From NCBI GenBank assembly GCA_034003145.1, contig JAVEZE010000001.1, positions 1 through 60,676 on the forward strand: DNA of 60,676 nt, read 5' to 3'. The translations under genes were made by a program, and so were the position numbers. This DNA is from Spirochaetia bacterium. GTDB lineage: Bacteria > Spirochaetota > Spirochaetia > CADAEX01. Positions 19,176-51,833 of the stretch are shown piece after piece. Positions within the stretch are counted from its first letter, which is position 1; every line of letters begins with the position of its first letter. Below the pieces are notes generated by a model, which was given only the letters and a program-made list of their open reading frames with translations, searched no databases and was not told the DNA's origin.

Positions 19176-19312
19176 ATTCCCCTTTGACTTTTATAATATC
19201 TAAATATCTGTAACACTACAATGCTTATGCATAATTATGCAATTGTCATACATAAAAGAGGAAGCAGGCAATTAAATCATTCACATAAGACAAGTGATGT
19301 TTTGATAGTTTA

Positions 19313-26137: not shown

Positions 26138-26182
26138 TTTGTATGACAATACTACTGTACCATCATTTTACCTAATTGTCAA
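26138..26182 (-). promoter_or_regulatory. promoter TTGACA-17-TACAGT with the dyad operator ATTGTCATACAAA 3 nt downstream (GntR autoregulation site)
   Basis: Minus strand: -35 at 26177-26182, -10 at 26154-26159 (preceded by TGG), dyad at 26138-26150. Confidence 0.6.
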
Positions 26183-26211
26183 GCTGAATACAACATTCTC
26201 CCTGCCTGTTC

Positions 26212-27252
26212 TCAAAGTTCTTTAAAAACTATCCTGCCGTAGATGCTGTCAAGCATAGAACCGTCAAAAACCTTATTTAAGGAAGACATTTCCATCTCAG
26301 ATGAGACAATCGGCTTCAGTGTACCGTTTTTAACATAATTTATCAGCTCAATTAATTCCTGTTTTGTACCAAGCCGGGAGCCTATAATTTCCCATTCATT
26401 GTAATGCATACCCAGGGCATCAAGCGGAACAGGCTTAAGAGGATCATACCCCATCAGAACAAGCTTGCCTCCCTTTTTCAGGCTTTTAAGCGCCCAGGGA
26501 AATGTCACTGCTGTACCTACTCCGTCAAGAACAACATCAGCGCCAAAACCTTCAGTCCATTCCCTGATTGCAGAAACAGGGTCCTGAGATTCCGGGTTAA
26601 ATACAACATCAGCCCCAAACCTCGTTGCTTCAGCCAGTGATTTATCCCTGATGTCAGCACCGGCAACTTCCGCACCAAGCATCTTGCCAAGCAAAACAGC
26701 ATGAAGGCCGAGTCCTCCAAGTCCGATGACAAGAACTTTTACGCCACTTTTTACTTTTCCAAGCGCTTTTAAGGCATGGTAAGGGGTAAGGACTGCATCA
26801 GGAAGGACAGCCATCTCTGCCCATAAGACCTTATGGTCATCAACAGGGCAGAAATTATATGCAGGGATTGCTATATATTCAGCAAATGCCCCGTCAAGCT
26901 CAAACCCTGTCCTTTTTATCTCAAAACAGATGTTCTCTCTTCCTGTTCTGCAAAGCCCGCAGTCCCTGCATGGTATGTAGTGATATACTATCCCCCTGTC
27001 ACCAGGTTTTAATCTTTTAACATTCTTTCCTGTCTCAACTATTTCCCCTGCCCCTTCATGTCCGGGGATATGGGGAAGCTTGATTATTCCGTCAAGTTTA
27101 CCGGTATATATTTTCATGTCTGTTCCGCAGATTCCTGCAGCTTTTACCCTTACAAGAACATCATCATCGCCGACCGGCGGCAGTGGAACATCTTTTAATA
27201 CCAGGGGGCTGTTATACTTTTCAAGAACCCAGGCTTTCATTGTATTTTTCAT
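26212..27252 (-). CDS. MDR-family Zn-dependent alcohol dehydrogenase
   Basis: CGTD, GHEGAG, CRDCGLCRTG and GLGGLG. I placed the start at ATG 27252 (MKNTMKAWVL), which follows a GAGG RBS. The track start at 27264 is a TTG. Confidence 0.85.
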   Translation of the reverse strand: MKNTMKAWVLEKYNSPLVLKDVPLPPVGDDDVLVRVKAAGICGTDMKIYTGKLDGIIKLPHIPGHEGAGEIVETGKNVKRLKPGDRGIVYHYIPCRDCGLCRTGRENICFEIKRTGFELDGAFAEYIAIPAYNFCPVDDHKVLWAEMAVLPDAVLTPYHALKALGKVKSGVKVLVIGLGGLGLHAVLLGKMLGAEVAGADIRDKSLAEATRFGADVVFNPESQDPVSAIREWTEGFGADVVLDGVGTAVTFPWALKSLKKGGKLVLMGYDPLKPVPLDALGMHYNEWEIIGSRLGTKQELIELINYVKNGTLKPIVSSEMEMSSLNKVFDGSMLDSIYGRIVFKEL

Positions 27253-27270
27253 TTTCAACCTCAATTTTCT

Positions 27271-28146
27271 TTAATCGTTGAATCCGAACGCTGTTCCCTT
27301 AACCCCGTAAAGACCGGTTGGTTTTATAAGGATAGTGATAAACATAACGATAAATGGGCCTACAAATGCAAGAGGAGCCCAGATTGTCCCTCCGACATTT
27401 ATAACCTGCCCCAGGACAAGGGAGGCGACCATTGTTCCCTTAATACTTCCCAGGCCGCCCAGTATTACGGTAATGAATGCGAATAAAAGCATATCAAACC
27501 CCATATAAGGTCCGACCATCACAAGAGGCGCGTTAAGCGCTCCCCCAAGCCCGGCAAAAGCGCTTGCGATTACAAATGTGGTTGTGAATATCCTGTTGAT
27601 ATTAACCCCAAGCCCTTCTACGTTTTCCCTGTTTTCAATTCCTGCCCGCAGAGCTTTGCCGGTAATTGTTTTGTTCATTAAAATCTGTATAAAAAGATAT
27701 GCGGCTGCAGCAATAACAATAATGATAAGCCTGTAAAGCGGTATCTGAATATTCATCAGCCGTACTATTGTTGAAATCGGAGATGCAACAGGTTTTGGGT
27801 CAAGGCCGTAGATAAACTGGATAACGCCGATACCTATCATGAATACACTGAAAGTCACAACCATCGTAAACATCATGTTCCTGTGATAAACTTTTCTTAA
27901 AAGGGTTGTTTCGACAATGAATCCAAGCAGCCCTCCTATAAGCGCTGCTCCTACCGCTCCAAGGAGAAAGCTTCCGGTTAAAGTTACTATCGTATATGTA
28001 ATATATGCGCCGAATGAATAGTAAAGCATTGCTTCCATGTTAACTATTCTCATAAGTCCGTAACCGATTGATAATGCAAGTGATATCAGAAATAATATTC
28101 CGCTTGTACTTAATCCGTATATAATTGCTGTAAACCAGGTTTCCAT
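27271..28146 (-). CDS. livH: branched-chain-amino-acid-type ABC permease (LivH-like)
   Basis: 291-aa polytopic protein in a LivG-F-M-H-type gene order. The substrate is not inferable. Confidence 0.8.
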   Translation of the reverse strand: METWFTAIIYGLSTSGILFLISLALSIGYGLMRIVNMEAMLYYSFGAYITYTIVTLTGSFLLGAVGAALIGGLLGFIVETTLLRKVYHRNMMFTMVVTFSVFMIGIGVIQFIYGLDPKPVASPISTIVRLMNIQIPLYRLIIIVIAAAAYLFIQILMNKTITGKALRAGIENRENVEGLGVNINRIFTTTFVIASAFAGLGGALNAPLVMVGPYMGFDMLLFAFITVILGGLGSIKGTMVASLVLGQVINVGGTIWAPLAFVGPFIVMFITILIKPTGLYGVKGTAFGFND

Positions 28147-28164
28147 AATTTTCCTCTTGATATT

Positions 28165-29154
28165 TTATTTTTCTGCTGTCTTGATACTTTCTTTTTTGTA
28201 TTTTTTGGATAAATCAAAGATAAAGCTGCCGGTATCCTGAATCAGGCCCCATAGCCCCCTGTTGAATTTAAAAAGGACAACAAGCGTCATAATGCCTACA
28301 ACAAATTCCCATCTTGAAAGCCAGCTGCTCACAAAGTCTTTCATCCCGAGGAAACCAAGCGCTCCGAAAAAAGGGCCGTAAACTGTCCCGATACCGCCGA
28401 TCAACGTAGCCAGCAGAACCTCAATCGCTCTTGAATTTTCCCCGAGACTGGGATTGACAAACCCGAAATTGACAGCATAAAGCGATCCTGCAATTGTTGA
28501 GAATACTACAGAAATAGTATAGGCGAGCCATCTGATCCTGAAAACATTGTAGCCGAGAAACCTCATTTTCCGCGGATTGGAGTTTGAGGCCTTGAGTATA
28601 GATCCTAGCGCTGATTTGTCCATTTTCCGGTAAATATATAATGCGGCCAGAAGGACAAACATTATAAAAAAGAAATAATTCTGCGGCAGCCTTATGTCAA
28701 GGAAAGGTGTCTTTGCCATATTGCTTCTGTACCACAGTCCGTCATTTCCGTTTGTAATATCGATAAGAAGCCTCTCAAACATGAATACTCCGATCGCGCA
28801 AAGAGAGGCGTTGATAAGGGTAAAATAACTCCCCTTAAGCCGCATCAGGCTGGGGCCAAGTATCAAAGAAAGCAGGAGGCCGACCAGAACGGCAAATAAC
28901 ATTGCGACAAAAACATTCCCGCCGAGATATGCCAGGTAAAGGGCTGCTGCATATGCCCCGCAGCTTAAATAGAACGGCTGGCCGAATGAGGTATATCCCA
29001 TATATCCCATAAGGATATTGTTGCCCATTACAAAAATTGTATATATCGATATTTCAGTAAAAAAGGTTATCTTGTTGGGAAACAGATAACGGCTTATCAA
29101 AAGACCGATAATAATAAAAACCGGTCCGAATATTTCAAGTTTCTTAAGTTTCAT
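28165..29154 (-). CDS. livM: branched-chain-amino-acid-type ABC permease (LivM-like)
   Basis: 329-aa polytopic protein adjacent to the LivH-like gene. Confidence 0.8.
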   Translation of the reverse strand: MKLKKLEIFGPVFIIIGLLISRYLFPNKITFFTEISIYTIFVMGNNILMGYMGYTSFGQPFYLSCGAYAAALYLAYLGGNVFVAMLFAVLVGLLLSLILGPSLMRLKGSYFTLINASLCAIGVFMFERLLIDITNGNDGLWYRSNMAKTPFLDIRLPQNYFFFIMFVLLAALYIYRKMDKSALGSILKASNSNPRKMRFLGYNVFRIRWLAYTISVVFSTIAGSLYAVNFGFVNPSLGENSRAIEVLLATLIGGIGTVYGPFFGALGFLGMKDFVSSWLSRWEFVVGIMTLVVLFKFNRGLWGLIQDTGSFIFDLSKKYKKESIKTAEK

Positions 29155-29171
29155 AGAAGCTCCTGTAACCT

Positions 29172-29867
29172 TTATAAATATTGCTCAAAGCATAAATTAC
29201 CAATATCTTCCCTGCTGATAATTTCATTGACAACCTTGCCTTCTTTCATGCAGTAAACCCTGTCGGCGATTTCCGCTATCAGGGGAAGGTTCTGTTCCAC
29301 TATAAACAATGTCGTGGTTTTACTAAGTTTTTTAAAAATTGCAGCCAGGTCCTTGATTACATGGGGAGCAAGCCCTTCAGTCGGCTCATCCAGCATGACA
29401 AGGCTGGGCTTTCCTATCATGGCCATAGCGATAAGAAGCATCTGTTTTTCACCGCCGCTTAAGTTCCCTGCCTTCCTGTCAATCAGCTCCCTGAGCTTCG
29501 GAAACATTCCAAGAACAGGTTCCCAGTCATAATCTTTTGTCGCATAACTGCTTAACTCGAGGTTTTCTTTTACGGTAAGATCTCCGAAAACCTGCTTATC
29601 CTGATGGATATATTTAAGCCCTGATCTTGCAGTCTTGTAGGCCCCTGTTTTATTTATGTTATTACCCTTGAATTCTATATTTCCCTCCGCGGGGGAAAGA
29701 AAGCCGGCAATTGTCCTGAAAAGGGTAGTTTTTCCCGCTCCGTTTCTGCCTACAAGAAATACAACCTCGCCGGCATTCACATTAACAGAAACATCAAAAA
29801 GCACAGCAAGTTTTCCGTAACAGACATTCAGATTGTCAACTTTCAAAAGTTTACTTTCCTGATTCAT
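29172..29867 (-). CDS. livF: ABC ATP-binding protein, LivF-like
   Basis: Walker A GRNGAGKTT, signature LSGGEKQML and Walker B LDEPTEGL. 231 aa. Confidence 0.85.
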   Translation of the reverse strand: MNQESKLLKVDNLNVCYGKLAVLFDVSVNVNAGEVVFLVGRNGAGKTTLFRTIAGFLSPAEGNIEFKGNNINKTGAYKTARSGLKYIHQDKQVFGDLTVKENLELSSYATKDYDWEPVLGMFPKLRELIDRKAGNLSGGEKQMLLIAMAMIGKPSLVMLDEPTEGLAPHVIKDLAAIFKKLSKTTTLFIVEQNLPLIAEIADRVYCMKEGKVVNEIISREDIGNLCFEQYL

Positions 29868-29902
29868 TTACTTCTCCGTATTTTATAAAAAATATTGAAA
29901 AA

Positions 29903-30664
29903 TCATTCTTCGATTTTCCAATAGGATTTTCGAACAACAGGATTATTAAGTGTTTCCTCACACGGCCCTGATGCTATCATTTTCCCCTCATGCATTACGC
30001 ACAGGGTATCAACAATCTCTGTCAGCTTTGAAAGCTTGTGCTCAACAATAATTATTGTCTTTTTATGCAGCTGCTTTTTTAATATTTCAATTATCTCGTC
30101 AATTTCATGATCGCTTATTCCTGCAAACGGTTCATCAAGAATAAAAACATGGGGATCGGAAATCCAGGCCATGGCAATTTCAAGCCTTTTCTGACTGCCC
30201 AGTGAGAGATTACCGACAATCTGACTGCTTTCTTTTTCAAGGCTGAATACCCTGAGCGCCTCTTCAACTTTCTCTGTAATCTTATTGTGTTTTTTGAAAT
30301 TTGTATTGTAAAGATTCAGAGGCATGGATTTGTTTTCCATTTTTCTGTAAATCGATAACGCGAGATTTTCAAAAGCAGTTATATTATCAAAAACATGAAC
30401 CAGCTGGAATGTTCTGACTATACCCTTTGCTACCCTCTTTTCGCTTTTCATCGAAGTTATATCCTCGCCCTGAAAAAAAACGCGTCCTTCTTCCGGAATA
30501 TATTCACCTGTCAATATGTTTATAAATGTTGTTTTACCGGCGCCGTTAGGCCCGAATATTCCGACAGCATCGTTTTCTTTTATGCTGAAATCAACATTAT
30601 CAACTGCTTTGAATAATCCGAATATTTTTGATACATTTTTTGTCTCAAATATGGCTTCGCTCAT
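29903..30664 (-). CDS. livG: ABC ATP-binding protein, LivG-like
   Basis: Walker A GPNGAGKTT, degenerate signature LSLGSQKRLEIA and Walker B ILDEPFAG. 253 aa. Confidence 0.85.
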   Translation of the reverse strand: MSEAIFETKNVSKIFGLFKAVDNVDFSIKENDAVGIFGPNGAGKTTFINILTGEYIPEEGRVFFQGEDITSMKSEKRVAKGIVRTFQLVHVFDNITAFENLALSIYRKMENKSMPLNLYNTNFKKHNKITEKVEEALRVFSLEKESSQIVGNLSLGSQKRLEIAMAWISDPHVFILDEPFAGISDHEIDEIIEILKKQLHKKTIIIVEHKLSKLTEIVDTLCVMHEGKMIASGPCEETLNNPVVRKSYWKIEE

Positions 30665-30771
30665 TTTTTACTCCCGATATTAAAATACCGCATCCGCCAG
30701 GGATGCATGATGCATTAATTAGCATTTTTTTGAGATCAGATGCTTTATTACCTTGGGATCATCGCTTTCAT

Positions 30772-31149
30772 TTATTTTTTAGCAGGCATATAAGGCATAG
30801 CCGGCGCGAACACATTGTAAAGCTTGACAGTTTTTTTGATGTTTTTTATGGTATGTTTTGTGTTAGGCGGAACCATAACAACCATTCCCGCTTCAAGGGG
30901 AAACTCACCTTCTCCCTCGATAAACATTGTTGCCTCCCCCTCAAGGACATGAATAAGGTCAGGCTGGTCGCGGTGAACATGCTCAGGCAAAGAGAGCCCT
31001 TCCCTGAGTTCTATCAGCATAACAGTAATCGGTGTTCCGTCTTTTTCCCTGGAATATATCCATTTAATTTTACTGCCGCCGTCATCCATGAAATGCTCTT
31101 CCCATGGGACATCGCTTATTTTTTTCTTTACTTCATATTTTGGTACCAT
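30772..31149 (-). CDS. cupin domain protein
   Basis: 125 aa with cupin motifs LPEHVHRDQPDLIHVLEG and VMVPPNTKH. Confidence 0.75.
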   Translation of the reverse strand: MVPKYEVKKKISDVPWEEHFMDDGGSKIKWIYSREKDGTPITVMLIELREGLSLPEHVHRDQPDLIHVLEGEATMFIEGEGEFPLEAGMVVMVPPNTKHTIKNIKKTVKLYNVFAPAMPYMPAKK

Positions 31150-31173
31150 TTTTTACCCCTTCTCCTATTTGAA

Positions 31174-32418
31174 TTAATATCCCATTACAGAAAGAGGAGG
31201 AAGAACTTCTTCTCCTCCGAATGAGTCGACCACAGTGAATAAATCCCAATTATTTTTCTTTTCAGCAGGGGTTTTCCCCTTTAAAAGAAAAGCGGTATGG
31301 TCATTTATCGGCTGTCTGTCTTTTCTGAAAATGTAGCTCCCTTTTATTGTGTCGATTTTTTTAGTCTCAAATATATTACTAACCTTTTCAGGATCAAATG
31401 TCCCTGCCTCTTCAACTGCCCCGAATATAAGCTTCGCGGCAAGGTATGCCGCAGTTCCCATATTATCCGGCGGCTCATTCCATCTTGCCATGTAGGCATC
31501 CGAGTATTTTTTTACCTTTTCAGCTACTGCCTTGTCTTTGAATCCTGTTAAATCATAATAAAACCACGCAAGCGCATAATGCCCGGCAAGAGCGTTCTCG
31601 GGAATCCCCTTGGCTACTATATTTGCGGTCCAGACATTAAAAATTGTGCTTACATCATAAAACCCAAGGTCATATGCCTGCTTAAGATTTGCTATCGCGT
31701 CTCCGCCGAACATTGTAGTGACAAAAACATCGGGTTTTAACCTGAGCGCCTTGTTTATGACTGCAGAATAATCAACAGTCCCTGCCGGCAGCTCTTCAAC
31801 CGCAACTATTTCTGTACCGTATTGTTTACACGCCGCTTCAAGCCCTTCCTGAATAACTGTACCCCATGAATCAGCTCTCTTCAGCAGAAAAATGGTTTTT
31901 TTACCCAGATTCTTCGCGATAGACTGGCCTGTAATATACCCGATGCTCCACGGTGTAAAAGTGGGAGTGTAGGAACATACAGCAGGATTTCCTGCCATAA
32001 AAGCGTCTTTCGCCGGCACAAAGCCAGGAACATATATAACAGGATTTATTTTTGTCTCTTCATTAAGTGCAGCAGACATGGGATTCCAGATTCCCCCTGT
32101 AAGTGCATCCATTCCCTGGTCCATCATTTCCCTGAATTTTCTCACCCCCACATCAAGCTTTGCCTGATCATCCTCTATCATTGATTCAACAGGAATCTTT
32201 CCCCAGGGCATATCAAGACCGCCGGCTGCGTTTATTTCTTCCACTGCAAGGATAAATGATTTTTTCTGGGTTTCTGCGACACCTGCAAAAGTGCCGCTCA
32301 ATGAAGAAGAAAAACCCATCTTGAAAACTGTGGGGTTTTCCTCTTCCTTCTTTCCTGCTGCGAATAGAACTGATGCGGCGCATATCAAAAGTATGGCAAA
32401 AAATAATTTTTTCTTCAT
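31174..32418 (-). CDS. Liv-type (periplasmic-binding-protein type 1) ABC substrate-binding protein, copy 2
   Basis: Signal peptide (LFAAGKKE). It shares long blocks with copy 1: FKMGF, ETQKK, GGLDMPWGK, AKLDVGVR and WNPMSAA. Confidence 0.8.
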   Translation of the reverse strand: MKKKLFFAILLICAASVLFAAGKKEEENPTVFKMGFSSSLSGTFAGVAETQKKSFILAVEEINAAGGLDMPWGKIPVESMIEDDQAKLDVGVRKFREMMDQGMDALTGGIWNPMSAALNEETKINPVIYVPGFVPAKDAFMAGNPAVCSYTPTFTPWSIGYITGQSIAKNLGKKTIFLLKRADSWGTVIQEGLEAACKQYGTEIVAVEELPAGTVDYSAVINKALRLKPDVFVTTMFGGDAIANLKQAYDLGFYDVSTIFNVWTANIVAKGIPENALAGHYALAWFYYDLTGFKDKAVAEKVKKYSDAYMARWNEPPDNMGTAAYLAAKLIFGAVEEAGTFDPEKVSNIFETKKIDTIKGSYIFRKDRQPINDHTAFLLKGKTPAEKKNNWDLFTVVDSFGGEEVLPPLSVMGY

Positions 32419-32459
32419 TTTTAATAAAACTCCTTAAAACCTTTTTCAGGAAATATTTT

Positions 32460-32531
32460 ACAGCCGCAGCCGGATGTGATACCCGGCGCTGCTGTAATTT
32501 TTTTCTCTGATATCAGTTCCCGGATATCAGA
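32460..32531 (-). other. two stem-loops between the tandem binding-protein genes
   Basis: Imperfect GC-rich hairpin at 32460-32495. Perfect 9-bp stem TCTGATATC (32506-32514) / GATATCAGA (32523-32531), 2 nt after the copy-1 stop codon. Confidence 0.55.
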
Positions 32532-32533
32532 AT

Positions 32534-33796
32534 CTAATAACCGAGTGATTTAAGTGAAGGAAGTGCTGATTCGCCGCCGAAAGATCCTATAACCTTAAAT
32601 ACATCATTGGGATCTTTCATTTCGTCTTTGGATTTCCCTTTTACAATAAACGCCAGGTAATCGCCGACAAGCTGCTGATCTTCCCTGAATTTCATTTTTC
32701 CTTTTACAGTATCAAACGTTGTTTCTTTCATTACTTTTGCTACAGCGACAGGATCAAAAGTTCCTGCTTTCTCTACTGATTCAAATATCATTTTTGCTGC
32801 CATGTATGAAATTGTTCCGTAAGCATCAGGCGGCTCGTTCCACATTTTCATGTGCGCCTCAGTATATGCCTTGGCCTTTTTCTCAAGCTCAGGATTACCA
32901 AAACCTTCCAGGTTGTAATAATAGAAATTAAGAGCGTAAAGCTCTTTAAGCGCGTCTGACGGTATTCCTTTTCCAACAACATTAGTTGTCCAGGTATTGA
33001 ACATTTTTGACTGTTTGTGAAGTCCCATATCATAAGCCTGTTTGAAGATTGCAATTGCATCTCCTCCAAACTGGCATGCCATAAATACGTCAGGTTTGAT
33101 TTCAAGCGCCTTGTTTATGGCTGATGAAAAATCAACTGTGCCGAGCGGATATTCAGCAAATCCTACAACTTCCCCGCCGTGCTCCGCGATTGCGGCTTTT
33201 AGCCCTTCAAATATTGTACTTCCCCATGAATCTGCCCTTGATACAAAAAAGATTTTTTTGGCGCCAAGTTCCTGGATAGCCGAAGCTCCCGCAAGATAAC
33301 CGATACTCCAGGGGGTAAACGCGACAGAAAAAGTTCCCACAGCCGGGTTTCCTTTTCTAAATGAATCAAGAGCTGGAACATTACCGGCAAGATACGGGAG
33401 AGGAGCGATCTTTGTTTCTTCATTTATTGCGGCAGACATCGGGTTCCAGACAGTACCTGTAAGGCCGTTGATACCTGCACCGACTAGCTCCCTGAACCTT
33501 CTGACTCCGACATCAAGTTTAGCCTCATCATCCTTTACCAGGGTCTCTATTTTAACCTTGCCCCATGGCATATCAAGGCCCCCTTTCGCGTTTACTTCCT
33601 CTGCCGCAAGGAGTGTCCCTTTTTTCTGGGTTTCACCTACAGCGGCAAATGATCCGCTTAATGATGTCATAAACCCCATTTTGAACTCGGCAGGTTTCGA
33701 ATCTTCTTTGGCGCCTCCTGCCGAAACACTGAAAACAGAAAACAGTACCATTATCAATGCCATAAGCAGAGATAGCAGTTTAATACTTCTTCTCAT
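32534..33796 (-). CDS. Liv-type ABC substrate-binding protein, copy 1
   Basis: 420 aa with a signal peptide. Paralogous to 31174-32418. It is the first gene of the transporter operon. Confidence 0.8.
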   Translation of the reverse strand: MRRSIKLLSLLMALIMVLFSVFSVSAGGAKEDSKPAEFKMGFMTSLSGSFAAVGETQKKGTLLAAEEVNAKGGLDMPWGKVKIETLVKDDEAKLDVGVRRFRELVGAGINGLTGTVWNPMSAAINEETKIAPLPYLAGNVPALDSFRKGNPAVGTFSVAFTPWSIGYLAGASAIQELGAKKIFFVSRADSWGSTIFEGLKAAIAEHGGEVVGFAEYPLGTVDFSSAINKALEIKPDVFMACQFGGDAIAIFKQAYDMGLHKQSKMFNTWTTNVVGKGIPSDALKELYALNFYYYNLEGFGNPELEKKAKAYTEAHMKMWNEPPDAYGTISYMAAKMIFESVEKAGTFDPVAVAKVMKETTFDTVKGKMKFREDQQLVGDYLAFIVKGKSKDEMKDPNDVFKVIGSFGGESALPSLKSLGY

Positions 33797-33821
33797 ATTT
33801 AACTCCTATAAATTATGTTGT

Positions 33822-33865
33822 ATTGTATTACAATATTATTTTAGCACGACGTGGCTGGATGTCAA
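33822..33865 (-). promoter_or_regulatory. promoter TTGACA-16-TAAAAT with the perfect dyad ATTGTAATACAAT 3 nt downstream
   Basis: Minus strand: -35 at 33860-33865, -10 at 33838-33843 (preceded by TGC, an extended -10), dyad at 33822-33834. AGGAG RBS precedes the ATG at 33796. Confidence 0.65.
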
Positions 33866-33970
33866 GAAAAAATGAAAAAGATCATAATATGAGAAGCGCT
33901 GTTCAGGGTACTGATAATCAGATTAAGGGGAAAAAGTTAACTAAATGAGAATCACCATGATTGAAAGGTA

Positions 33971-34663: not shown

Positions 34664-35073
34664 CCCTCACCCCCTTTGCCGGGATTTGATCTGCCGCTGG
34701 CGCTTCCAGGGGATGATCCGCCGCGTCCGTGAAATATTTTCATCAAAAGCTGAGCTGTAATCCCTGTAACAAGCATCACAATTATAGTCCCTGCAGCTAT
34801 CAGGAGGAATATTTTAAAAAGATAATGGCCGGCGTATCTGCCGATATCTGCGCTGCTTACAACAACCGGAATAAGGAAGAAAACAATATTATCAAGAAAA
34901 AAACCTGAAACATCAGCAATTGCTTCGTATTTTACAATATTTGAAAAAAGAAGGAGTGTCATAACAATGATCCCGATTACGCTTCCCGGTATCATGGGAA
35001 GCAACAATCTGGACAAAAGCTCACTTGCAAACGCAACTGCGGATGCAAGCGTGACTACAAAAAACACTTTCAT
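34660..35073 (-). CDS. lrgA: LrgA/CidA-family small membrane protein
   Basis: 137 aa with four predicted TM helices and a Gly/Ser/Pro-rich tail. Its start lies 3 nt after the CoADR stop codon. Confidence 0.7.
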   Translation of the reverse strand: MKVFFVVTLASAVAFASELLSRLLLPMIPGSVIGIIVMTLLLFSNIVKYEAIADVSGFFLDNIVFFLIPVVVSSADIGRYAGHYLFKIFLLIAAGTIIVMLVTGITAQLLMKIFHGRGGSSPGSASGRSNPGKGGEG

Positions 35074-35076
35074 TCT

Positions 35077-36807
35077 TTAGGTCTTGCCTGAAGCTGCGCT
35101 GATGCTCTGTGGCGCGGCTGAGGCTTCCAGCCTTATTTTTTCCCAGAAGTGAGTTGAAAACACGGTACCTCCGGATAAAACAGCAATTTTTTTAAATCCT
35201 GCTTTTTCGAGGATTTTATATGCGTTATACGCTCTTATACCTCTGCGGCAGACTATTGCGTATTCCTTGTCTTTATCAAGTTCACCGATCCTGTCAGACA
35301 GGTAAGTATTTTCAATGTGGATTGATCCCGGAATAGACCATTCTGCCACCTCATCATCTGTTCTGATATCAAGTATGATAACATCCCTGTTTTTCTCATC
35401 CGAGAAAAGATCAACAGGATGGACAGTCTTGACTCTTCCTGAAAGCTTGTTCCGCCCTGTATTTGAAGAGGCAATGGTTGATGCCATAGCGTTTGAAAAC
35501 GGTGGAGCATAGGCAAGATCAAGATTTGAAAGATCAAAAATTGTAGCGTTAAAGCTTATTGCGGTAACAAGGATATCTACCGGTTTATCCACGACACCCC
35601 AGCCGAAAACCTGCCCGCCGAGAACCCTGCCGCTTTTCTTTTCATATATAAGTTTGGTTATTATCTCTTTAAATCCAGGATAGTATCCTGCGCTGTCATT
35701 GCCGGGAACAATTACAGTATCATAGTCATATCCGCCAGCTTTGGCATCCTTTTCTGTAAGGCCTGTCTTTCCCGCTGTCATCTCAAAAACCTTGATTATC
35801 ATTGTGCCGAGAACTCCGGGGAAAACCTCTGTAGATCCTCCGAACCGTTTCTCTGCCATAATTCTGCCCATCTTGTTGGCGGTAGATCCGAGCGGGACCC
35901 AGCACTCTTTTCCTGTAATCCTGTTTTTCATTTCAACACAGTCGCCTACAGCGAAAATATCCTTGATATTTGTCTCAAAATTATCATCAACCTTTATTGC
36001 CCCCGCAATACCTGTTTTTATACCGCATCTTACAGCAATCTCTGAATTTGCTTTAACGCCTGCAGCCGCGACAACAAAATCCACATCAACATCGCCTCCG
36101 CTGCGCAGCGATACTTTTATCCTTCCGTCATCAAGCTGGGAAAAACCAGTTACCATCTCGCTGGTTTTTATTTGAAGCCCTTTCTGCTCCATAAAATATC
36201 TGATATAAAGTGATACATCATAGTCAAACCCGGCGAGAATCTGATCCTTCATTTCAACAACAACAGTCTCAATACCCATGTCAAATAAATTTTCGGCTGT
36301 TTCAATACCTATTAAACCTGATCCAATTACAAGGGCACGCCCTTTTTTTGCAGCAGTCTTTACTGCCGCGTCTTTTATTTTGTTGGAATCCCTGACTGTT
36401 CTCAGATTGTAAATACCGGGAAGGTCAGCGCCAGGAAGCGGAAGTGGAAATGGAATCGCGCCTGTAGCGATAACAAGGGTATCATATTCATACTTCTTCA
36501 GTTCACCGCTCTTTAAATCAAGGGCAGAAACAGTTTTGTTCCCGGGATCAATATCTTTGGCTTCTGTATTAAGCTCAACTTTAATGTCGCGGACTTTTTC
36601 AAACGATTCAGCTTTAACAATCTTTAACGCTTCTTCAGTTTCTATAACACCGCCTATATAATAAGGCAGTCCGCAGCCGGCATAGGAGATCATATCTTCA
36701 TTGGATAAAATTGTAATATCAAGGGACTGGTTCTCCCTTCTGGCTTTTGCCGCGGTTTTTGCACCCGCGGCGACACCGCCGATTACAAGCAGTTTTTCTT
36801 TTTTCAT
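35077..36807 (-). CDS. CoA-disulfide/persulfide reductase-type flavoprotein fused to a C-terminal rhodanese domain (CoADR-RHD)
   Basis: FAD fold GGVAAG, redox Cys in SYAGCGLPYY, second fold VIGSGLIG and a C-terminal rhodanese loop CRRGIRA. Confidence 0.8.
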   Translation of the reverse strand: MKKEKLLVIGGVAAGAKTAAKARRENQSLDITILSNEDMISYAGCGLPYYIGGVIETEEALKIVKAESFEKVRDIKVELNTEAKDIDPGNKTVSALDLKSGELKKYEYDTLVIATGAIPFPLPLPGADLPGIYNLRTVRDSNKIKDAAVKTAAKKGRALVIGSGLIGIETAENLFDMGIETVVVEMKDQILAGFDYDVSLYIRYFMEQKGLQIKTSEMVTGFSQLDDGRIKVSLRSGGDVDVDFVVAAAGVKANSEIAVRCGIKTGIAGAIKVDDNFETNIKDIFAVGDCVEMKNRITGKECWVPLGSTANKMGRIMAEKRFGGSTEVFPGVLGTMIIKVFEMTAGKTGLTEKDAKAGGYDYDTVIVPGNDSAGYYPGFKEIITKLIYEKKSGRVLGGQVFGWGVVDKPVDILVTAISFNATIFDLSNLDLAYAPPFSNAMASTIASSNTGRNKLSGRVKTVHPVDLFSDEKNRDVIILDIRTDDEVAEWSIPGSIHIENTYLSDRIGELDKDKEYAIVCRRGIRAYNAYKILEKAGFKKIAVLSGGTVFSTHFWEKIRLEASAAPQSISAASGKT

Positions 36808-37262
36808 TTACAGTGTTCCTCAATATCTTCAATTACCCATTCGCATACTTTCCGCACAAGCGGTTTGCATATATTTTCATGTACCTTTAGTTTTTCATCA
36901 TCAGTCGGCTGGGTTTTTTTAAGATCAAGCCCTGTAATATCAAGGCAGTTTATATTGCCGATATTTTCCTTGAATTTCGCGAGAAGCCGGTCGACTGCCT
37001 CATAAGCAGGGGCTCTTTCCTCATCTATGCTGTCGCGCCCGTATACAATACCAAGCGCCATTCCTCCTGCTGCAAGGCTTCCGCACATCATTCCGTTTCT
37101 CCCGAATCCTCCGCCGAACGGGGTAGCTATTCTCGGAATCAGCTCACTGTCAATTTCAAGATATTTAGCAAGTCCGTACAGGGTGGATTCGGCGCAGTTA
37201 TACCCGCCTGTGCTTCCGCTGTTGTAATATTTTATGCATTCATCACATTTATCTCTGCTCAT
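36804..37262 (-). CDS. C_GCAxxG_C_C family putative redox-active protein
   Basis: 152 aa with conserved cysteines in YNCAESTLYG, GMMCGSLAAG, INCLD and ICKPLVRKVCE. ATGA overlap with the CoADR-RHD start. Confidence 0.65.
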   Translation of the reverse strand: MSRDKCDECIKYYNSGSTGGYNCAESTLYGLAKYLEIDSELIPRIATPFGGGFGRNGMMCGSLAAGGMALGIVYGRDSIDEERAPAYEAVDRLLAKFKENIGNINCLDITGLDLKKTQPTDDEKLKVHENICKPLVRKVCEWVIEDIEEHCK

Positions 37263-37304
37263 TAATTAACCTCCACAATATATTCAGGATTTTTAAATTT
37301 TATA

Positions 37305-38828
37305 TTATTTTTCATCGTTTTTGGGGGTACATTTCTCTGCCCCTTTTGACCATGCCTTTTTAAGTGAAGGCATTAAAAATGGAGCAGAAAGTGAAAAAAT
37401 TGAAACTATAATAAAAAACAGACTAATGGGATGCCTTACAAAGACCATCGGATTTCCCTGACTTATAATTAAAGACATCCTCAGGTGCTCCTCAAGATTC
37501 GGGCCCAGAATAAGGGCAAGAAGCAGGGGAACAACAGGAAAACCGTATTTTTTCATTAAAAAGGCAAGGATGCCGAAGAATATCATTATCCCTGTATCAA
37601 AAAAGGTGTTCCTGAGTGAATAAGAACCCACAACACAAAGCACTAGTATAATGGGAAGTAATATACGCTGAGGTACTTTCAGGATCCTTACCCAGAAATT
37701 GATGCTTGTAAAAGAAACTATCAGATTGAAAATATTTGCGATTAAAAACGCCCAGAAGATTGAAAAGACAAACTGGGGATTTGTCTCAAAAAGAAGAGGC
37801 CCGGGTATAAGGCCGTGAATCATCAAAGAACCAAGAAGGATAGCTGTAATGGGATCACCTGGAATTCCAAGTGTAAGCATCGGGATAAGAGCTCCGCCTC
37901 CAACTGCGTTATTGGCTGCCTCAGGCGCCGCGATACCGTCAGCTGAACCATTGCCGTAATTATCCTTATCCTTTGAAATCTTTTTAGACGCATCATAGGC
38001 GAGAAAAACAGCAATTGCCCCACCCGCACCCGGTATTGCCCCGATTCCAGTGCCTATAAAGGAGCCGACCAGGATTGCCTTCATTCTTTTTCCCACATCT
38101 GAAAACTTTGGCAATATGCCGGTAATTTTTTTATCATACTTAGGGATTACACTTCCCTTGTTTGTGAGTCCCGATATAATTTGAGGAATCGCAAACAGCC
38201 CTATCATTGCGGGAAGAAAAGGAATTCCAGCCTGGAGGTCAAGCATGCCGAATGTAAACCGGGGCGTTCCGGTCATGGAATCAAGACCTGCTGTCATGAT
38301 AATAAGTCCCAAAAGCCCTGCTATAACACCTTTAAGCAAAGATTGCTGCCCGAAGCTGCAGATCAGTGTAATACCGAGCAGAACAAGGGCGAAAAGCTCA
38401 GGCGCGCCGAATTTAAGCGCGGCTTTCGCGAGAAACGGGGATATCGCAGAAAGACATATAAGGCCGATTATTCCTCCGATAAAAGAGGCGATAATTGCTG
38501 TGCCGAGCGCCTGCCCCGCCTTGCCCTGCTGCGCCATGATATGGCCGTCAATAGCAGTGGCAGAGGCTGACGGTGTTCCGGGAATATTAAGAAGAATCGC
38601 GGAAAAAGATCCTCCTGTCATTCCTGCCGCGTAAAGGCCCAAAAGGAGGCAGACAGAGGTAACAGGATCAAGTGAGAAAGTTATTGGAAGCAGGAGGACC
38701 ATTCCAAGAGAAATTGTCAGCCCTGGAGTGGCTCCTATAAAAAGGCCAAATGAAACACCTAAAAGCGATGCAATAATATTTTGCAGTTTCAACACTTCAA
38801 ACATTGAAGCCAATATATATTCTAACAT
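37305..38828 (-). CDS. tctA: tripartite tricarboxylate transporter permease TctA
   Basis: 507-aa, 12-TM-type protein with the Gly-rich motifs typical of TctA. It follows the TctB-like and TctC-like genes. Confidence 0.85.
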   Translation of the reverse strand: MLEYILASMFEVLKLQNIIASLLGVSFGLFIGATPGLTISLGMVLLLPITFSLDPVTSVCLLLGLYAAGMTGGSFSAILLNIPGTPSASATAIDGHIMAQQGKAGQALGTAIIASFIGGIIGLICLSAISPFLAKAALKFGAPELFALVLLGITLICSFGQQSLLKGVIAGLLGLIIMTAGLDSMTGTPRFTFGMLDLQAGIPFLPAMIGLFAIPQIISGLTNKGSVIPKYDKKITGILPKFSDVGKRMKAILVGSFIGTGIGAIPGAGGAIAVFLAYDASKKISKDKDNYGNGSADGIAAPEAANNAVGGGALIPMLTLGIPGDPITAILLGSLMIHGLIPGPLLFETNPQFVFSIFWAFLIANIFNLIVSFTSINFWVRILKVPQRILLPIILVLCVVGSYSLRNTFFDTGIMIFFGILAFLMKKYGFPVVPLLLALILGPNLEEHLRMSLIISQGNPMVFVRHPISLFFIIVSIFSLSAPFLMPSLKKAWSKGAEKCTPKNDEK

Positions 38829-38893
38829 GTATTATCCCTAAATTATTTTGTTTTCTGTATAATCATATAATAATCATATTATATGTTTATTAT

Positions 38894-39349
38894 CTATATG
38901 ATCATTCCGCCTGGCAGCTGAACCCTGAAAACAACCACAAACAGTAAATATACTGAAACAGAGACCAGGACAGATGTAAGAAACATCTCTTTCAGGTTTG
39001 CTGCTCCCATCATTTTCATCAGCAGAAATACAGCAACCGGGGTTATCATTGCAAAACCGATAATCCTCATCATAAAAACATAACCAATTATAAGCAAAAC
39101 AATTTTAGCAATTCCCAATATTTCATATTTATGTATTACATAATCGCATTTTTCAAGACACGGTCTGATTAAGGAAGTAACAAGAAATGCTGTATTAATT
39201 ATCATCAATAAAACAAAAAGCAGGGTAGGCATAAAACTGCTTTTCAAGGTTCCCGGCATATTTCTATCCGGAAGCATAAGAATCTGCCAGAAATACCAGA
39301 TGGCAAATATATAAATAATAGCAGATAAAATAATATTAATTTTTTTCAT
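38894..39349 (-). CDS. tctB: tripartite tricarboxylate transporter small subunit TctB
   Basis: 151 aa with four TM helices, positioned between tctC and tctA. Confidence 0.7.
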   Translation of the reverse strand: MKKINIILSAIIYIFAIWYFWQILMLPDRNMPGTLKSSFMPTLLFVLLMIINTAFLVTSLIRPCLEKCDYVIHKYEILGIAKIVLLIIGYVFMMRIIGFAMITPVAVFLLMKMMGAANLKEMFLTSVLVSVSVYLLFVVVFRVQLPGGMII

Positions 39350-39371
39350 TAAGGTAATCCGATTTTAAAGC

Positions 39372-39400
39372 TGTATAATAATTTTGTTTTTTCCTGTCAA
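39372..39400 (-). promoter_or_regulatory. candidate internal promoter TTGACA-17-TATACA ahead of tctB
   Basis: Minus strand: -35 at 39395-39400 and -10 at 39372-39377, 23 nt upstream of the tctB ATG. Confidence 0.4.
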
Positions 39401-39406
39401 ATTTGG

Positions 39407-39480
39407 CAAAAAACAATAAAAATTATGGTAAAGCACTGCGCCAACTGAAGCTGATGCAGTGCTGAAACCAAAACTACCAT
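39407..39480 (-). terminator. terminator/attenuator immediately after tctC
   Basis: Stem AGCACTGC (39432-39439) / GCAGTGCT (39456-39463), extended by ATGGTA/TACCAT. On the minus strand it is followed by AATTTTTATTGTTTTTTG. Confidence 0.6.
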
Positions 39481-39489
39481 ACCTGGCTG

Positions 39490-40491
39490 TTATTTTTTAA
39501 TCAATCCGGCAGCATCCATTGCTGCGTAAACCCTTTTGTACTGATCAGCAAGAACTACTTCAAAATCAGCCCTCCCCTTGAAATCAACAACAAAACCGGT
39601 TTTATTTGCAAGATCCTGGAATTCTTTGCTCTCTGATGCTGCCTTGAATGCTTTTTCAAGCATAGCTGATACAGCAGGATCTGTCCCCTTTGGAAGGCTT
39701 ACACCCCTGAAAAGATCCATGACAACATCATAGCCCTGTTCCTTTAACGAAGGAACGTCAGGAAATGAAGGATCTCTTTTGGCTGTTGATACACCCAGGA
39801 TTCTGGCTTTACCTGCTTTTACCTGGGGAGCAATTTCAGGAAGAGGAACACATACTGCTTCCACTTCGCCGCCCAAAAGACTTGCGATTCTTCTTTCAGC
39901 GCCTAAAGGAACATGGATAGCCTGGACTCCTGCCGCCTGCTGGAACATTACACCGGTAAGATGTGTTCCGCTTCCAGTACCCGCGTTGCCTATTTTAAGC
40001 TTTCCAGGGTTCTTTTTTGCCCAGTCTACAAGATCATCTGCTGTTTTCCAGGGCGAGTCGGCAAGAACTGCTATCGGCATTGATGTATAACCTACAACAC
40101 AGATGTTATCAAAATCTGTGTAAGGAAATGGAACATTTCCCATAATTGTTGTGGTAAGAATTGAAGTTGAGTTCCAGGCTGTTGTATATCCGTCCGGTTC
40201 AGCTTTGTGAAGCTCACCGTACATGATTCCGCCGCCTGCTCCCGGCCTGTTTACAGGGACAACCGGCTCACCGATAATATTATCCATTGAGCTTACAAGA
40301 GCTCTTCCAAGAAGGTCGGCATCACCGCCGGCTCCGAACGGGATAAGAAAACTTATCGGTTTTTCAGGAAACTTTGCACTCATTTCCGCAGCCTGGGGAG
40401 CTGCTTCGCTGCCGCCTGCCGCAAAAACGAAAGAAACAGATGCAATCAATAAAACTGCTGCAACTGTTATTCTCATAAAATTTTTCATCAA
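39490..40491 (-). CDS. tctC: Bug/TctC-family tripartite tricarboxylate transporter substrate-binding protein
   Basis: 333 aa with a signal peptide (FAAGGSE). NRPGAGGGIM fits the TctC PGAGG motif. Confidence 0.85.
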   Translation of the reverse strand: MMKNFMRITVAAVLLIASVSFVFAAGGSEAAPQAAEMSAKFPEKPISFLIPFGAGGDADLLGRALVSSMDNIIGEPVVPVNRPGAGGGIMYGELHKAEPDGYTTAWNSTSILTTTIMGNVPFPYTDFDNICVVGYTSMPIAVLADSPWKTADDLVDWAKKNPGKLKIGNAGTGSGTHLTGVMFQQAAGVQAIHVPLGAERRIASLLGGEVEAVCVPLPEIAPQVKAGKARILGVSTAKRDPSFPDVPSLKEQGYDVVMDLFRGVSLPKGTDPAVSAMLEKAFKAASESKEFQDLANKTGFVVDFKGRADFEVVLADQYKRVYAAMDAAGLIKK

Positions 40492-40567
40492 AAACTCCTT
40501 TGTTTATTTATTGTTATTTATTGTTATTTTTACATATATAGCTTATCCACTAATTTTAATAATCATA

Positions 40568-41488
40568 TTATTCCTGCGCTGCCGCCCAGGCCAGCTTTAT
40601 CACCCGTTTTGCCTGGGCAATAATTGCTTCTGAATATTCTTCCATTAGCAGCGGCCTCACCTCAACACTAACAACAGGGCGCTTTTCAGGAGAGACAAGT
40701 TTTCTTTCAAGAAGAAGCCTGAAAAAATCCGCAACCTCTTTAACATCAGTCTCACCGCCGGGAATCCCGAACCTCGGCTGAAGATCACCGTAAAGGGGAT
40801 GCTTCCTGTCTCTCATTATGCAGTTGCCAAGATGAAAATGCATTGGAAATTTTTCAACAAGAGGGATTACATCTTCCGGTTTTTCCCTTAAAAGAGGAAA
40901 ATGTGAAAGATCTGCAAGAACGCCGAAATTTTTATACTTTGCATATACTTCATCTGCTACATCTGCGGCATCGCTGAAAAGGCCGATAAGCGCTTTTTTA
41001 TCAATATCCCGGTCAAATATTTTAAGATAAAGCATCGCGTCGCCGAAATCGCTGTTATATTCACAGAGCTCTGAAAGCGAATCAACAAAGATTTTCTTTG
41101 CCTCTCCCCTTTTTTCATCACCAGGATCTTTTCCCGAAAGGACACGGATTGATGTCGCCCCGATATGATATGCTTCAGCGATCCCTTTCTTTACACCCTC
41201 AATTGCTTTCCGTCTTTCTGCCTTGTCAAAGGAATTGAGATTAAGCTTTTGTGATAATATCCTCGGCTGGCAGGCATAGCATACCTTCATTGCTGATATT
41301 TCAAGAAGTTTTCTTACTTCGCTTCTTTTTTTGTCATCCTTGATCCAGCCTATCTCGACCGCTGTCCAGAAATCATCTTCCACAAGCTTTTTAAGCGATT
41401 CAATTATTGTCCCGCCTCCGTCAACAATTTCGGGGAAAGCCTTGAAATGGACAATCCCAAGATCCATATATCTATAAATATCTCTCAT
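40568..41488 (-). CDS. xylose-isomerase-like TIM-barrel protein (sugar phosphate isomerase/epimerase family)
   Basis: 306 aa. The call rests on the overall alternating beta/alpha pattern and His/Asp/Glu-rich ligand positions (HFHLGN, SVEVRP). This is a weaker, family-level call. Confidence 0.6.
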   Translation of the reverse strand: MRDIYRYMDLGIVHFKAFPEIVDGGGTIIESLKKLVEDDFWTAVEIGWIKDDKKRSEVRKLLEISAMKVCYACQPRILSQKLNLNSFDKAERRKAIEGVKKGIAEAYHIGATSIRVLSGKDPGDEKRGEAKKIFVDSLSELCEYNSDFGDAMLYLKIFDRDIDKKALIGLFSDAADVADEVYAKYKNFGVLADLSHFPLLREKPEDVIPLVEKFPMHFHLGNCIMRDRKHPLYGDLQPRFGIPGGETDVKEVADFFRLLLERKLVSPEKRPVVSVEVRPLLMEEYSEAIIAQAKRVIKLAWAAAQE

Positions 41489-41527
41489 CTGTTTACTCCC
41501 AAAATTTATTTTTTAACCAGACTGATA

Positions 41528-42598
41528 TCACGGATGGACTACAACCTTGATGGCCCCTTCCTTCCTTCCCATAAATACATCAAAAGCCTCATTTATCTGG
41601 TCAAGTTTAAAAGAGTGGGTAATAATTTCCTTTCCGCTAACCTTTCCCTCTCTCATAAGCTCAAGTCCCCTGTGGACACACTGCCTGCCTTCGCCCCTGA
41701 TCGTAAAAATATTGTTCATATTTTGAACAGCAAGCCCTACATCAATGGTAACAGGATCCTCAAAATGGGCAAGAAGAGTAATATCTCCCCCTTTCCTTAC
41801 TGCCCTCAAGGCAAGCTGGAATGCATCTGTTGTACCCGAGGCAAGAAGAACAAGGTCTGCGCCGTATCCGCCTGTAAGTGATTTGACAAAGGCAATTGCA
41901 TCTTCCTCTCTTACATTGACTGTGTGTTCTGCCCCAAGTTTTTTTCCAAGATCAAGCCTTTCCTTTCTGGTTCCTGCGAGAATCACCTTACCGGCACCCA
42001 GTGCTTTCGCACACTGGACTGCCATCAGTCCTATGGACCCCGGCCCTATTACAAGAACTGACTCGCCGACAATAAACCCCCCGTTCCGTGAAATGCCGAA
42101 AAGGGGTGTGCCTACAGTTGTAATCATTGTAGCTTCGTCAAAAGAGATATTATCCGGGATAAGACTAATTGTATTAACATGATTTACAGCGTATTCAGCA
42201 AAACCACCGTTTGTCGTAAAACCGTTTGCGATATGCCCCTTGTCCTTGTTACCGTAGTTTAAGCACGCGGTCTGTTTTCCGTCGAGGCAGTTCTTGCATC
42301 TTCCGCACCCTTTATGCACCTCAACAGTTACCCTGTCGCCTATGTTAAACTCATCTACCGAGGAACCTTTTTTGACAATTATTCCGGCATATTCATGTCC
42401 GATGATGAAATCTCCCATGGGAGGCTGTTTAAGCATTCCCCTGGTTATAATTTTTACGTCGCCGCCGCATATAGAACATGACTCAACTTTGATCAGAACT
42501 TCATCCTCACCAGGTGACGGAACAGGCCTTTCGACCACTCTTACATCATTCCAGTCAAAAAGAACCGCAGCCTTCATTTTTTCAGGCACATTCATCAA
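41528..42598 (-). CDS. MDR-family Zn-dependent dehydrogenase, paralog of 24335-25411
   Basis: CGGD...GHEYAG, GCGRCKNC and GPGSIG. It shares blocks with the paralog: QPPxGDFIIGHEY, CLNYG..KGH.ANGFTTNGG, IFT.RGEG and INEAFD. Confidence 0.85.
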   Translation of the reverse strand: MMNVPEKMKAAVLFDWNDVRVVERPVPSPGEDEVLIKVESCSICGGDVKIITRGMLKQPPMGDFIIGHEYAGIIVKKGSSVDEFNIGDRVTVEVHKGCGRCKNCLDGKQTACLNYGNKDKGHIANGFTTNGGFAEYAVNHVNTISLIPDNISFDEATMITTVGTPLFGISRNGGFIVGESVLVIGPGSIGLMAVQCAKALGAGKVILAGTRKERLDLGKKLGAEHTVNVREEDAIAFVKSLTGGYGADLVLLASGTTDAFQLALRAVRKGGDITLLAHFEDPVTIDVGLAVQNMNNIFTIRGEGRQCVHRGLELMREGKVSGKEIITHSFKLDQINEAFDVFMGRKEGAIKVVVHP

Positions 42599-42627
42599 AT
42601 TCCCCCATATTAGTTATTGTTTTTTTT

Positions 42628-42681
42628 ATTGTACGACAATTGGACTGTATTATTTTATGTCTGAATATTTTGTTTTGTCAA
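42628..42681 (-). promoter_or_regulatory. promoter TTGACA-18-TAAAAT with the dyad ATTGTCGTACAAT 11 nt downstream
   Basis: Minus strand: -35 at 42676-42681, -10 at 42652-42657, dyad at 42628-42640. It lies in the divergent spacer shared with the plus-strand cupin gene. Confidence 0.6.
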
Positions 42682-45596: not shown

Positions 45597-45605
45597 ATTA
45601 TACCA
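45597..45605 (-). promoter_or_regulatory. extended -10 element TGGTATAAT upstream of the MFS gene
   Basis: The minus strand reads TGGTATAAT, 79 nt upstream of the GTG start. Confidence 0.45.
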
Positions 45606-45717: not shown

Positions 45718-45757
45718 TTGACGTTTATCTATGACATATGGTATACAATTGGTATAT
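45718..45757 (+). promoter_or_regulatory. promoter (TTGACG-18-TATACA) of the second GntR gene, overlapped by TGGTATACA / TGGTATAT motifs
   Basis: -35 at 45718-45723 and -10 at 45742-45747. TGGTATACA at 45739-45747 and TGGTATAT at 45750-45757 resemble the TGGTATACCA dyad at 51844-51853. Confidence 0.5.
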
Positions 45758-47564: not shown

Positions 47565-47578
47565 ATTATTTTTCTCCT

Positions 47579-49596: not shown

Positions 49597-49604
49597 TATT
49601 TCTC

Positions 49605-50576: not shown

Positions 50577-50614
50577 AACTTTATTCTCCTTATAAAACTT
50601 ATATTTTTTATATT

Positions 50615-51733: not shown

Positions 51734-51833
51734 TTAACACTCCTTAAGGATTTGACTGTAGAAAAAACCCAACATGCGGAAGGCTATTCAGCAATGGGAG
51801 GTACAGTACAAGGTTTTTTCATCACCCATTAAT

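Follow-up and report, generated by a model that had tools for sequence, protein, structure and literature searches.

Regulators of the FadR subfamily within the GntR family recognise A/T-rich palindromes with TKGT and ACMA boxes, in which GT and AC lie 3 nt and sometimes 2 nt apart, and weaker extra half-sites have been reported beside many GntR palindromes (PMC4494728). In Escherichia coli, the DgoR site IR1 (CTAAATTGTAGTACAACAATAT) contains ATTGTAGTACAA and overlaps the dgo promoter (PMC11705089). Here, these systems are compared with three dyads, O1, O2 and O3, in a stretch of 60,676 nucleotides from Spirochaetia bacterium (assembly GCA_034003145.1, contig JAVEZE010000001.1, positions 1 to 60,676), the whole of which is called the window below. 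An earlier note, made from the sequence alone, had described a shared dyad, ATTGTA-N-TACAAT, at three promoters of a gene cluster and had predicted a single FadR-subfamily regulator for them. Our analysis makes it likely that the three dyads are operators, predicted from sequence, of one local GntR/FCD (FadR-subfamily) repressor, GntR1, encoded at 25418-26110.

Three dyads at three predicted promoters

All three sites were found exactly where the earlier note had placed them, and a consensus promoter scan returned the perfect TTGACA -35 elements and the gaps of 3, 3 and 11 nt between -10 hexamer and dyad that it had claimed. The elements are listed below, with scores in bits from a position weight matrix (PWM) and scores out of 12 from the consensus scan.

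26182-26154, minus strand: promoter P1, TTGACA-17-TACAGT, TG-extended (TG at -15/-14); 10/12
26150-26138, minus strand: O1, ATTGTCATACAAA, 3 nt past the -10 hexamer and 27 nt ahead of the gntR ATG; 15.2 bits
33865-33838, minus strand: promoter P2, TTGACA-16-TAAAAT, TG-extended; 11/12
33834-33822, minus strand: O2, ATTGTAATACAAT, a perfect 6+1+6 dyad, 3 nt past the -10 hexamer and 25 nt ahead of the binding-protein ATG; 20.8 bits, the PWM maximum
42681-42652, minus strand: promoter P3, TTGACA-18-TAAAAT; 11/12; TTGACA and the 18-nt spacing are kept in loci L005-L009 (see below)
42649-42644, minus strand: TACAGT, 3 nt upstream of O3 and 8 nt downstream of the better-spaced P3 -10 hexamer; invariant in all site-3 orthologs
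42640-42628, minus strand: O3, ATTGTCGTACAAT, 11 nt past the -10 hexamer and 32 nt ahead of the dehydrogenase ATG; 16.5 bits

The description of a shared ATTGTA-N-TACAAT dyad stood in part: the three sites are real, but the dyad is perfect at O2 only, and the core common to all three is ATTGT-NNT-ACAAT. Each site reads TTGT-N3-ACAA, so that the earlier comparison of the GT..AC core with the FadR-subfamily pattern holds, and O1-O3 conform, at the level of sequence, to the published operator consensus (PMC4494728). P1-P3 rank among the top sigma-70-like consensus matches in the 17-kb region. As for the start codons, ATG 26110 is probably the start of gntR1, rather than GTG 26119, and ATG 42595 probably that of the dehydrogenase, rather than TTG 42598.

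The occurrence of the motif was compared with chance in several ways. The PWM, trained solely on sites from other genomes and then scanned over the window, ranked O2, O3 and O1 first to third in 60.7 kb; the next match (11.9 bits) is coding, and no coding match of at least 12 bits was found in 54.8 kb of the window. For the 5.7 kb of intergenic DNA in the window (35% GC), a first-order Markov simulation gave 0.04 expected matches of at least 15 bits against 3 observed (P ~3e-4). The exact sequence TTGTNNNACAA occurs three times in the window, each time as one of O1-O3. When the window and the loci fetched by protein homology are taken together (412 kb), the density of this exact motif in intergenic DNA is about 20 times that in coding DNA. 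Among 64 palindromes of equal composition, it had the top intergenic count (8 versus at most 3 elsewhere, in a non-redundant subset). A crude count of 13-mers with one mismatch over the whole window was not significant, being reached by 13 of 100 shuffles. The three-site pattern exceeds chance, and the comparison of intergenic with coding matches that the earlier note had proposed came out in favour of its motif.

Conservation in Spirochaetia relatives

Loci of Spirochaetia relatives (L001-L018) were fetched by protein homology, the closest relatives being metagenome-assembled genomes. Eleven genomes carry the motif in intergenic DNA beside gntR1, beside orthologous target genes, or both. At O1, the block TACAGTAGTATTGTCATACAA and the -35 element TTGACA are invariant ahead of gntR in five genomes with regulators 55-89% identical, while the rest of the intergenic DNA is unalignable; both the -35 and -10 hexamers of P1 are kept in orthologous loci. 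L017, whose regulator has 48% identity, shows TTGACA-17-TATAGT-act-ATCGTAATACAAT, again in the geometry of O1. Ahead of the binding-protein gene, L001 and L002 retain O2 and L003 has it as ACTGTAATACAAT, with a diverged spacer between the -35 and -10 elements, and O3 is kept ahead of the dehydrogenase ortholog in L005-L009, L017 and L018. A fourth promoter module, TTGACA-16-TATAAT-ttt-ACTGTATTACAAT, is present in L001 (5255-5308) ahead of livG, after two inserted dehydrogenase genes. The layout of a -10-like hexamer, 3 nt and the dyad was seen at most promoters, including this livG module. A TACAGT hexamer precedes the dyad of O1 and of O3 by exactly 3 nt in all orthologs. At P1, this hexamer is itself the -10 element, and beside O3 it may be an auxiliary half-site, since ACAGT resembles ACAAT.

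A more distant group, L010-L016, has regulators 42-44% identical to GntR1 and a rearranged gene order in which gntR is divergent from the dehydrogenase gene. In the intergenic region shared by the two genes, the motif reads (A/G)TTGTA(G/C)TAC(A/T)GT and sits between the -35 and -10 hexamers, so that it is retained despite the altered promoter architecture. More sites were found in these loci ahead of the binding-protein gene, and tandem dyads 16 bp apart occur in L011, L012 and L016, an arrangement which would fit binding by two dimers. Over about 410 kb of loci, no unrelated gene was preceded by a comparable site. This conservation is the pattern expected of a local regulon with its putative operator under selection. 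Phylogenetic footprinting, which the earlier note had also suggested, thus found the sites kept upstream of orthologous gntR, Liv-type binding-protein and dehydrogenase/TIM-barrel/TctCBA genes, with regulator identities of 42-89% and diverged flanks. Since the Liv-type and TctCBA units both carry conserved sites, the prediction of two different uptake systems under one regulator is supported as well.

The L010-L016 loci also contain a conserved leader of about 105 nt before the dehydrogenase start (e.g., L016 9899-10003), which separates the operator-bearing promoter from the start codon. In its predicted fold, a 5' CCTTGG segment pairs with the Shine-Dalgarno sequence GGAGG; only one compensatory pair was observed, and the window is without such a leader. 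Rfam searches were without a match in the window and in L011 at the gathering threshold, and likewise in the L016 leader at E <= 1.

The candidate regulator and the alternatives

Two GntR/FCD genes lie in this part of the window, the second of which was absent from the earlier note.

25418-26110, minus strand: gntR1, winged helix-turn-helix and FCD domains, first gene of unit 1; the proposed repressor
45776-46444, plus strand: GntR2, second GntR/FCD gene (Pfam)

GntR1 consists of a winged helix-turn-helix domain (PF00392, E = 1.1e-18, residues 15-76) and an FCD domain (PF07729, E = 5.5e-22, residues 97-219) that spans the whole Pfam profile. Its best matches in the PDB are 6az6, 2di3 and 7c7e (DgoR). 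At the level of alignment, the Asp-x3-His, His and His positions of the FCD domain (HD..FH, FH, DH) correspond to those of 7c7e, 2di3 and 6az6, and every ortholog keeps them; by analogy with DgoR and CGL2915, we take them to be the metal ligands (D-x3-H, H, H). All orthologs share an invariant recognition helix, GVGRGT(V/I)REAL. GntR1 scored below every NCBIfam equivalog cutoff of the subfamily (LldR, PdhR, GlcC, NanR, UxuR, ExuR and FadR), with 100.2 against 260 for NanR, 95.3 against 311 for LldR and 75.9 against 330 for PdhR, and, judged by these profiles, belongs to none of the named FadR-subfamily orthologous groups. Orthologs of gntR1 (42-89% identity) accompany the motif in all 11 genomes that show both regions. 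Together with the sites conserved ahead of orthologous genes, this agrees with the single FadR-subfamily regulator predicted earlier for the three promoters. Autoregulation, suggested in the earlier note for a gene at 25418-26119, remains a prediction of our analysis too, with O1 in the gene's own promoter and conserved there; the coordinates are the part that changed, given the likelier start at 26110.

In the proposed mechanism, a dimer would bind each ATTGT-NNT-ACAAT palindrome with one winged helix-turn-helix per half-site. Relative to the predicted start, the operators span about -3 to +10 at P1 and P2 and about +5 to +17 at P3, positions from which a bound repressor would be expected to block open-complex formation or promoter escape. 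The repressor-type placement claimed in the earlier note agrees with these dyads at or just past the predicted starts, and steric repression of initiation or promoter escape would be the simplest model also for the spacer-located sites of L010-L016. A small-molecule effector, probably a carboxylate that serves the encoded pathway as substrate or intermediate, would bind the metal-containing FCD domain and cause release of the DNA. Such release would co-induce the regulator's enzyme operon, the Liv-type ABC importer and the unit of dehydrogenase, TIM barrel and TctCBA, a tripartite tricarboxylate transporter (TTT). Binding by GntR1, repression and the nature of the effector are inferred.

The sites could be real operators bound by another protein, be it GntR2, a GntR1 paralog elsewhere or an unlinked global factor, but we consider this unlikely. 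GntR2 is likewise a FadR-subfamily protein, lies only 3 kb from O3 and is kept beside the cluster in L005 and L006. It is present, however, in just two of the 11 genomes in which gntR1 orthologs accompany the motif; L008-L018 keep the motif without a GntR2 homolog within 10 kb, and gntR1 is adjacent in every locus of sufficient length to reveal it. The GntR2 recognition helix (NASRTPIREAL) is also unlike that of GntR1, and its upstream region holds TGGTATA boxes instead of the dyad. With its absence from most motif-bearing loci, its different helix and boxes of its own, GntR2 is an unlikely binder of O1-O3. A paralog is a closer candidate by its helix: the closest complete genome (L004) encodes a 49%-identical GntR protein with the helix GVSRGTMREAL, almost the same as that of GntR1, but the motif is missing from this paralog's own cluster. 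A global factor is disfavoured by the roughly 410 kb of loci in which the dyad precedes no unrelated gene. We give slightly less weight still to GntR1 binding the sites while activating or acting dually, or controlling only some of the units, the other sites being non-functional look-alikes. Some FadR-subfamily proteins both activate and repress (FadR at fabA), and O3 lies further downstream than O1 and O2 (11 nt past the -10 hexamer). Against this reading, all sites occupy repressor positions, either over or just past the predicted start or, in L010-L016, between -35 and -10, and O1, O2 and O3 are equally strongly conserved.

Least probable of all, and very improbable in our judgement, is that the dyads are not protein operators, and are instead chance AT-rich palindromes, part of the core promoter or initial transcribed region, repeat copies or 5'-mRNA hairpins. 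The crude one-mismatch count would allow this, as would the position of AT-rich sites in AT-rich intergenic DNA, always next to promoters. Chance is opposed by the simulation based on intergenic composition and by the rank among the 64 palindromes, and the conservation of the dyads between genomes with diverged flanks argues against any non-operator origin. The three regions are not repeat copies, because their likeness is confined to the -35, -10 and dyad elements. A 6+1+6 dyad with a 1-nt loop cannot fold stably as a hairpin, and the motif of L010-L016, being upstream of the -10 hexamer, is not transcribed. An explanation at the RNA level, or by known RNA families, was rejected, the Rfam searches of the window, L011 and the L016 leader having returned no matches.

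Several points nevertheless weigh against the assignment of O1-O3 to GntR1 as repressor. The promoters and start sites are consensus predictions only, and GntR1 was chosen as the regulator from its co-localisation with the sites and from the motif class. The paralog in L004, with its near-identical recognition helix, could cross-bind. In L010-L016, a distance of 190-240 nt between motif and gntR start makes autoregulation less clear. The scan covered the window and the fetched loci, so that the regulon may extend further, and the TACAGT adjoining O1 and O3 is only tentatively explained.

The control of the divergent cupin and hydrolase genes, which the earlier note had thought possible, found no support. 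From O3 it is about 30 nt to the dehydrogenase start and about 150 nt to the likely start of the cupin gene, whose promoter candidates all lie downstream of the site, and a second site is absent; regulation of these two genes was rejected, neither a site nor the geometry supporting it. For the cupin, ATG 42797 is the likelier start codon in place of 42743, with AGGAG six nt ahead of it; another ATG, at 42791, stands immediately next to this AGGAG. A further candidate was considered at the other end of the cluster.

19242-19254, plus strand: weak candidate fourth site, ATTGTCATACATA, only 9.7 bits by PWM, upstream of the NfnAB-like pair (16804-19175)

The NfnAB-like pair is not syntenic in relatives. 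A perfect 14-bp palindrome, TGCATAATTATGCA, at 19228-19241 abuts this weak site, upstream of the same pair, and may be the site of another regulator.

Gene content and comparison with known systems

According to Pfam and NCBIfam, the minus-strand genes form a co-directional cluster of three units, followed by the NfnAB-like pair.

42595-33971, minus strand: unit 3 (Pfam), zinc-dependent alcohol dehydrogenase, xylose-isomerase-like TIM barrel, TctC, TctB, TctA, C_GCAxxG_C_C protein, Pyr_redox_2 and rhodanese protein, LrgA, LrgB
33796-26212, minus strand: unit 2 (Pfam), two Peripla_BP_6 binding proteins, cupin, LivG/LivF-type ATPases, LivM/LivH-type permeases, zinc-dependent alcohol dehydrogenase
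26110-19313, minus strand: unit 1, gntR1 and then the enzyme genes (25411-19313) for a zinc-dependent alcohol dehydrogenase, UPF0261 protein (MarK-type kinase family), DHDPS-family aldolase, creatininase-family hydrolase, short-chain dehydrogenase/reductase and D-2-hydroxyacid dehydrogenase
19175-16804, minus strand: NfnAB-like pair after unit 1, DHODB-type Fe-S subunit (18288-19175) and GltD-like subunit (16804-18291)

The unit 1 enzymes are syntenic with gntR1 in L001-L003, L008 and L017. The genes of unit 3 overlap or nearly abut and keep an identical order in L005, L006 and L009; the unit probably continues as far as 33971, taking in the GCAxxG, CoA-disulfide-reductase-like and LrgAB genes. 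No convincing terminators were found between units 1-3, and P1-P3 may therefore be internal promoters of a co-directional supercluster. Within unit 2, a GC-rich hairpin followed by a T-run (30707-30689, minus strand) lies between the cupin gene and livG and could leave the membrane and ATPase genes with less transcript than the binding-protein genes. The cupin-livG junction of L001 and L002 holds two extra zinc-dehydrogenase genes. A second copy of the enzyme block was observed in L004 (OY759746.1 1649522-1670202), about 70 kb from the main cluster, with proteins 83-97% identical to those of the window; this copy is fused to a paralogous Liv-type importer and the 49%-identical GntR paralog, and the dyad is absent from it.

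A Thermotoga-type inositol gene cluster adjoins the regulon and has a transporter and a regulator of its own.

46509-58847: inositol cluster adjoining the regulon, with IolM, IolN and IolG above their NCBIfam cutoffs, an IolO-like protein, a ribose-type ABC transporter and a ROK regulator
47579-48835: IolM, 530 bits against a cutoff of 450
48775-49596: IolO-like TIM barrel, 232 against a cutoff of 300, thus below it
49605-50576: IolN, 525 bits against a cutoff of 245
52809-53825: IolG, 471 bits against a cutoff of 355
57630-58847: ROK-family regulator

The TGGTATA boxes upstream of GntR2 are located at 45599-45605 and 45739-45756, and a palindrome, TGGTATACCA, lies in intergenic DNA at 51844-51853, upstream of the inositol-cluster gene 50615-51733. 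The boxes and the palindrome may represent a separate operator motif with a 2-nt GT/AC spacing.

In the regulon itself, the best or near-best NCBIfam matches are IolM for the three zinc-dehydrogenases, IolN for the creatininase-family protein and IolO for the TIM barrel. The scores (204 against 450, 82 against 245 and 29 against 300) are far under the cutoffs, which makes these enzymes distant paralogs of the inositol enzymes. For the identity of the substrate, the NCBIfam search of the regulon yielded sub-threshold IolM/N/O-like matches only. UPF0261 proteins have been shown to be ATP-dependent kinases (MarK; PMC12624787). Given the sub-cutoff likeness to IolM/N/O beside a genuine inositol set, and the UPF0261 kinase family, the regulon probably encodes a paralogous, uncharacterised catabolic route. 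The FCD regulator and the two importers, of TTT and Liv type, would suggest a carboxylate-type substrate.

Only tentatively do we propose that the operator marks a Spirochaetia-wide regulon for a catabolic route that is so far undescribed. This route would comprise oxidation by zinc-dehydrogenases, ring or amide hydrolysis by the creatininase-family protein, isomerisation by the TIM barrel, a MarK-type UPF0261 kinase and a DHDPS-type aldolase, with import by the TTT and Liv-type systems. Its substrate would probably be carboxylated or cyclic polyol-like, and not myo-inositol, and the effector would be the substrate or an intermediate. The sites offer a well-supported cis-regulatory definition for a gene set of 23-26 kb in an uncultured spirochaete lineage, joining about a dozen enzymes and two importers, each from a different family, into one predicted functional unit. 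They also make the pathway experimentally approachable, with the regulator and operator available for inducer screening and the two binding proteins for ligand screening, and regulator and operator together could be used as a component of a biosensor.

Compared with the Thermotoga-type inositol pathway, the regulon has the same three enzyme families as IolM, IolN and IolO. It differs in adding a UPF0261 kinase-family protein and a DHDPS-family aldolase, and in having TTT and Liv-type importers instead of a ribose-type sugar ABC transporter.

Regarding regulation, the arrangement is that of a canonical FadR-type repressor and operator, and mechanistically it is nothing new. Differences from DgoR were nonetheless observed. 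GntR1 is not its ortholog: the match to 7c7e has E = 9e-14 (54.9 bits), and two other regulators in the PDB match better. According to Pfam and NCBIfam, dgoK, dgoA, dgoD and dgoT are absent from the cluster, and three promoters and two importers are predicted here as opposed to the single promoter of the dgo system (PMC11705089). The likeness to DgoR lies in the operator and the regulator. The ATTGTAGTACAA of IR1 matches 12 of the 13 positions of ATTGTANTACAAT, the operators overlap the promoter, and the gene for DgoR heads an operon that this regulator itself controls, as is predicted for gntR1. The D/H/H/H metal ligands of the FCD domain are shared at the level of alignment. DgoR uses two closely spaced repeats, to which the combination of TACAGT, 3 nt and dyad and the 16-bp tandem dyads of L011, L012 and L016 look similar.

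Close parallels were also found among the FadR-subfamily local regulons reconstructed by comparative genomics (LldR, PdhR, GlcC, ExuR/UxuR and others; Suvorova et al. 2015, RegPrecise). The host here belongs to an uncultured Spirochaetia lineage, and spirochaetes do not appear in the available part of the taxon table of that study. The motif architecture is the same, with TKGT and ACMA boxes and GT-N3-AC, and these regulons likewise have a site before the regulator's own operon, and a weaker extra half-site beside the palindrome to which TACAGT may correspond. Their targets, like those predicted for GntR1, are catabolic genes for oxidised or carboxylate substrates together with transporters.

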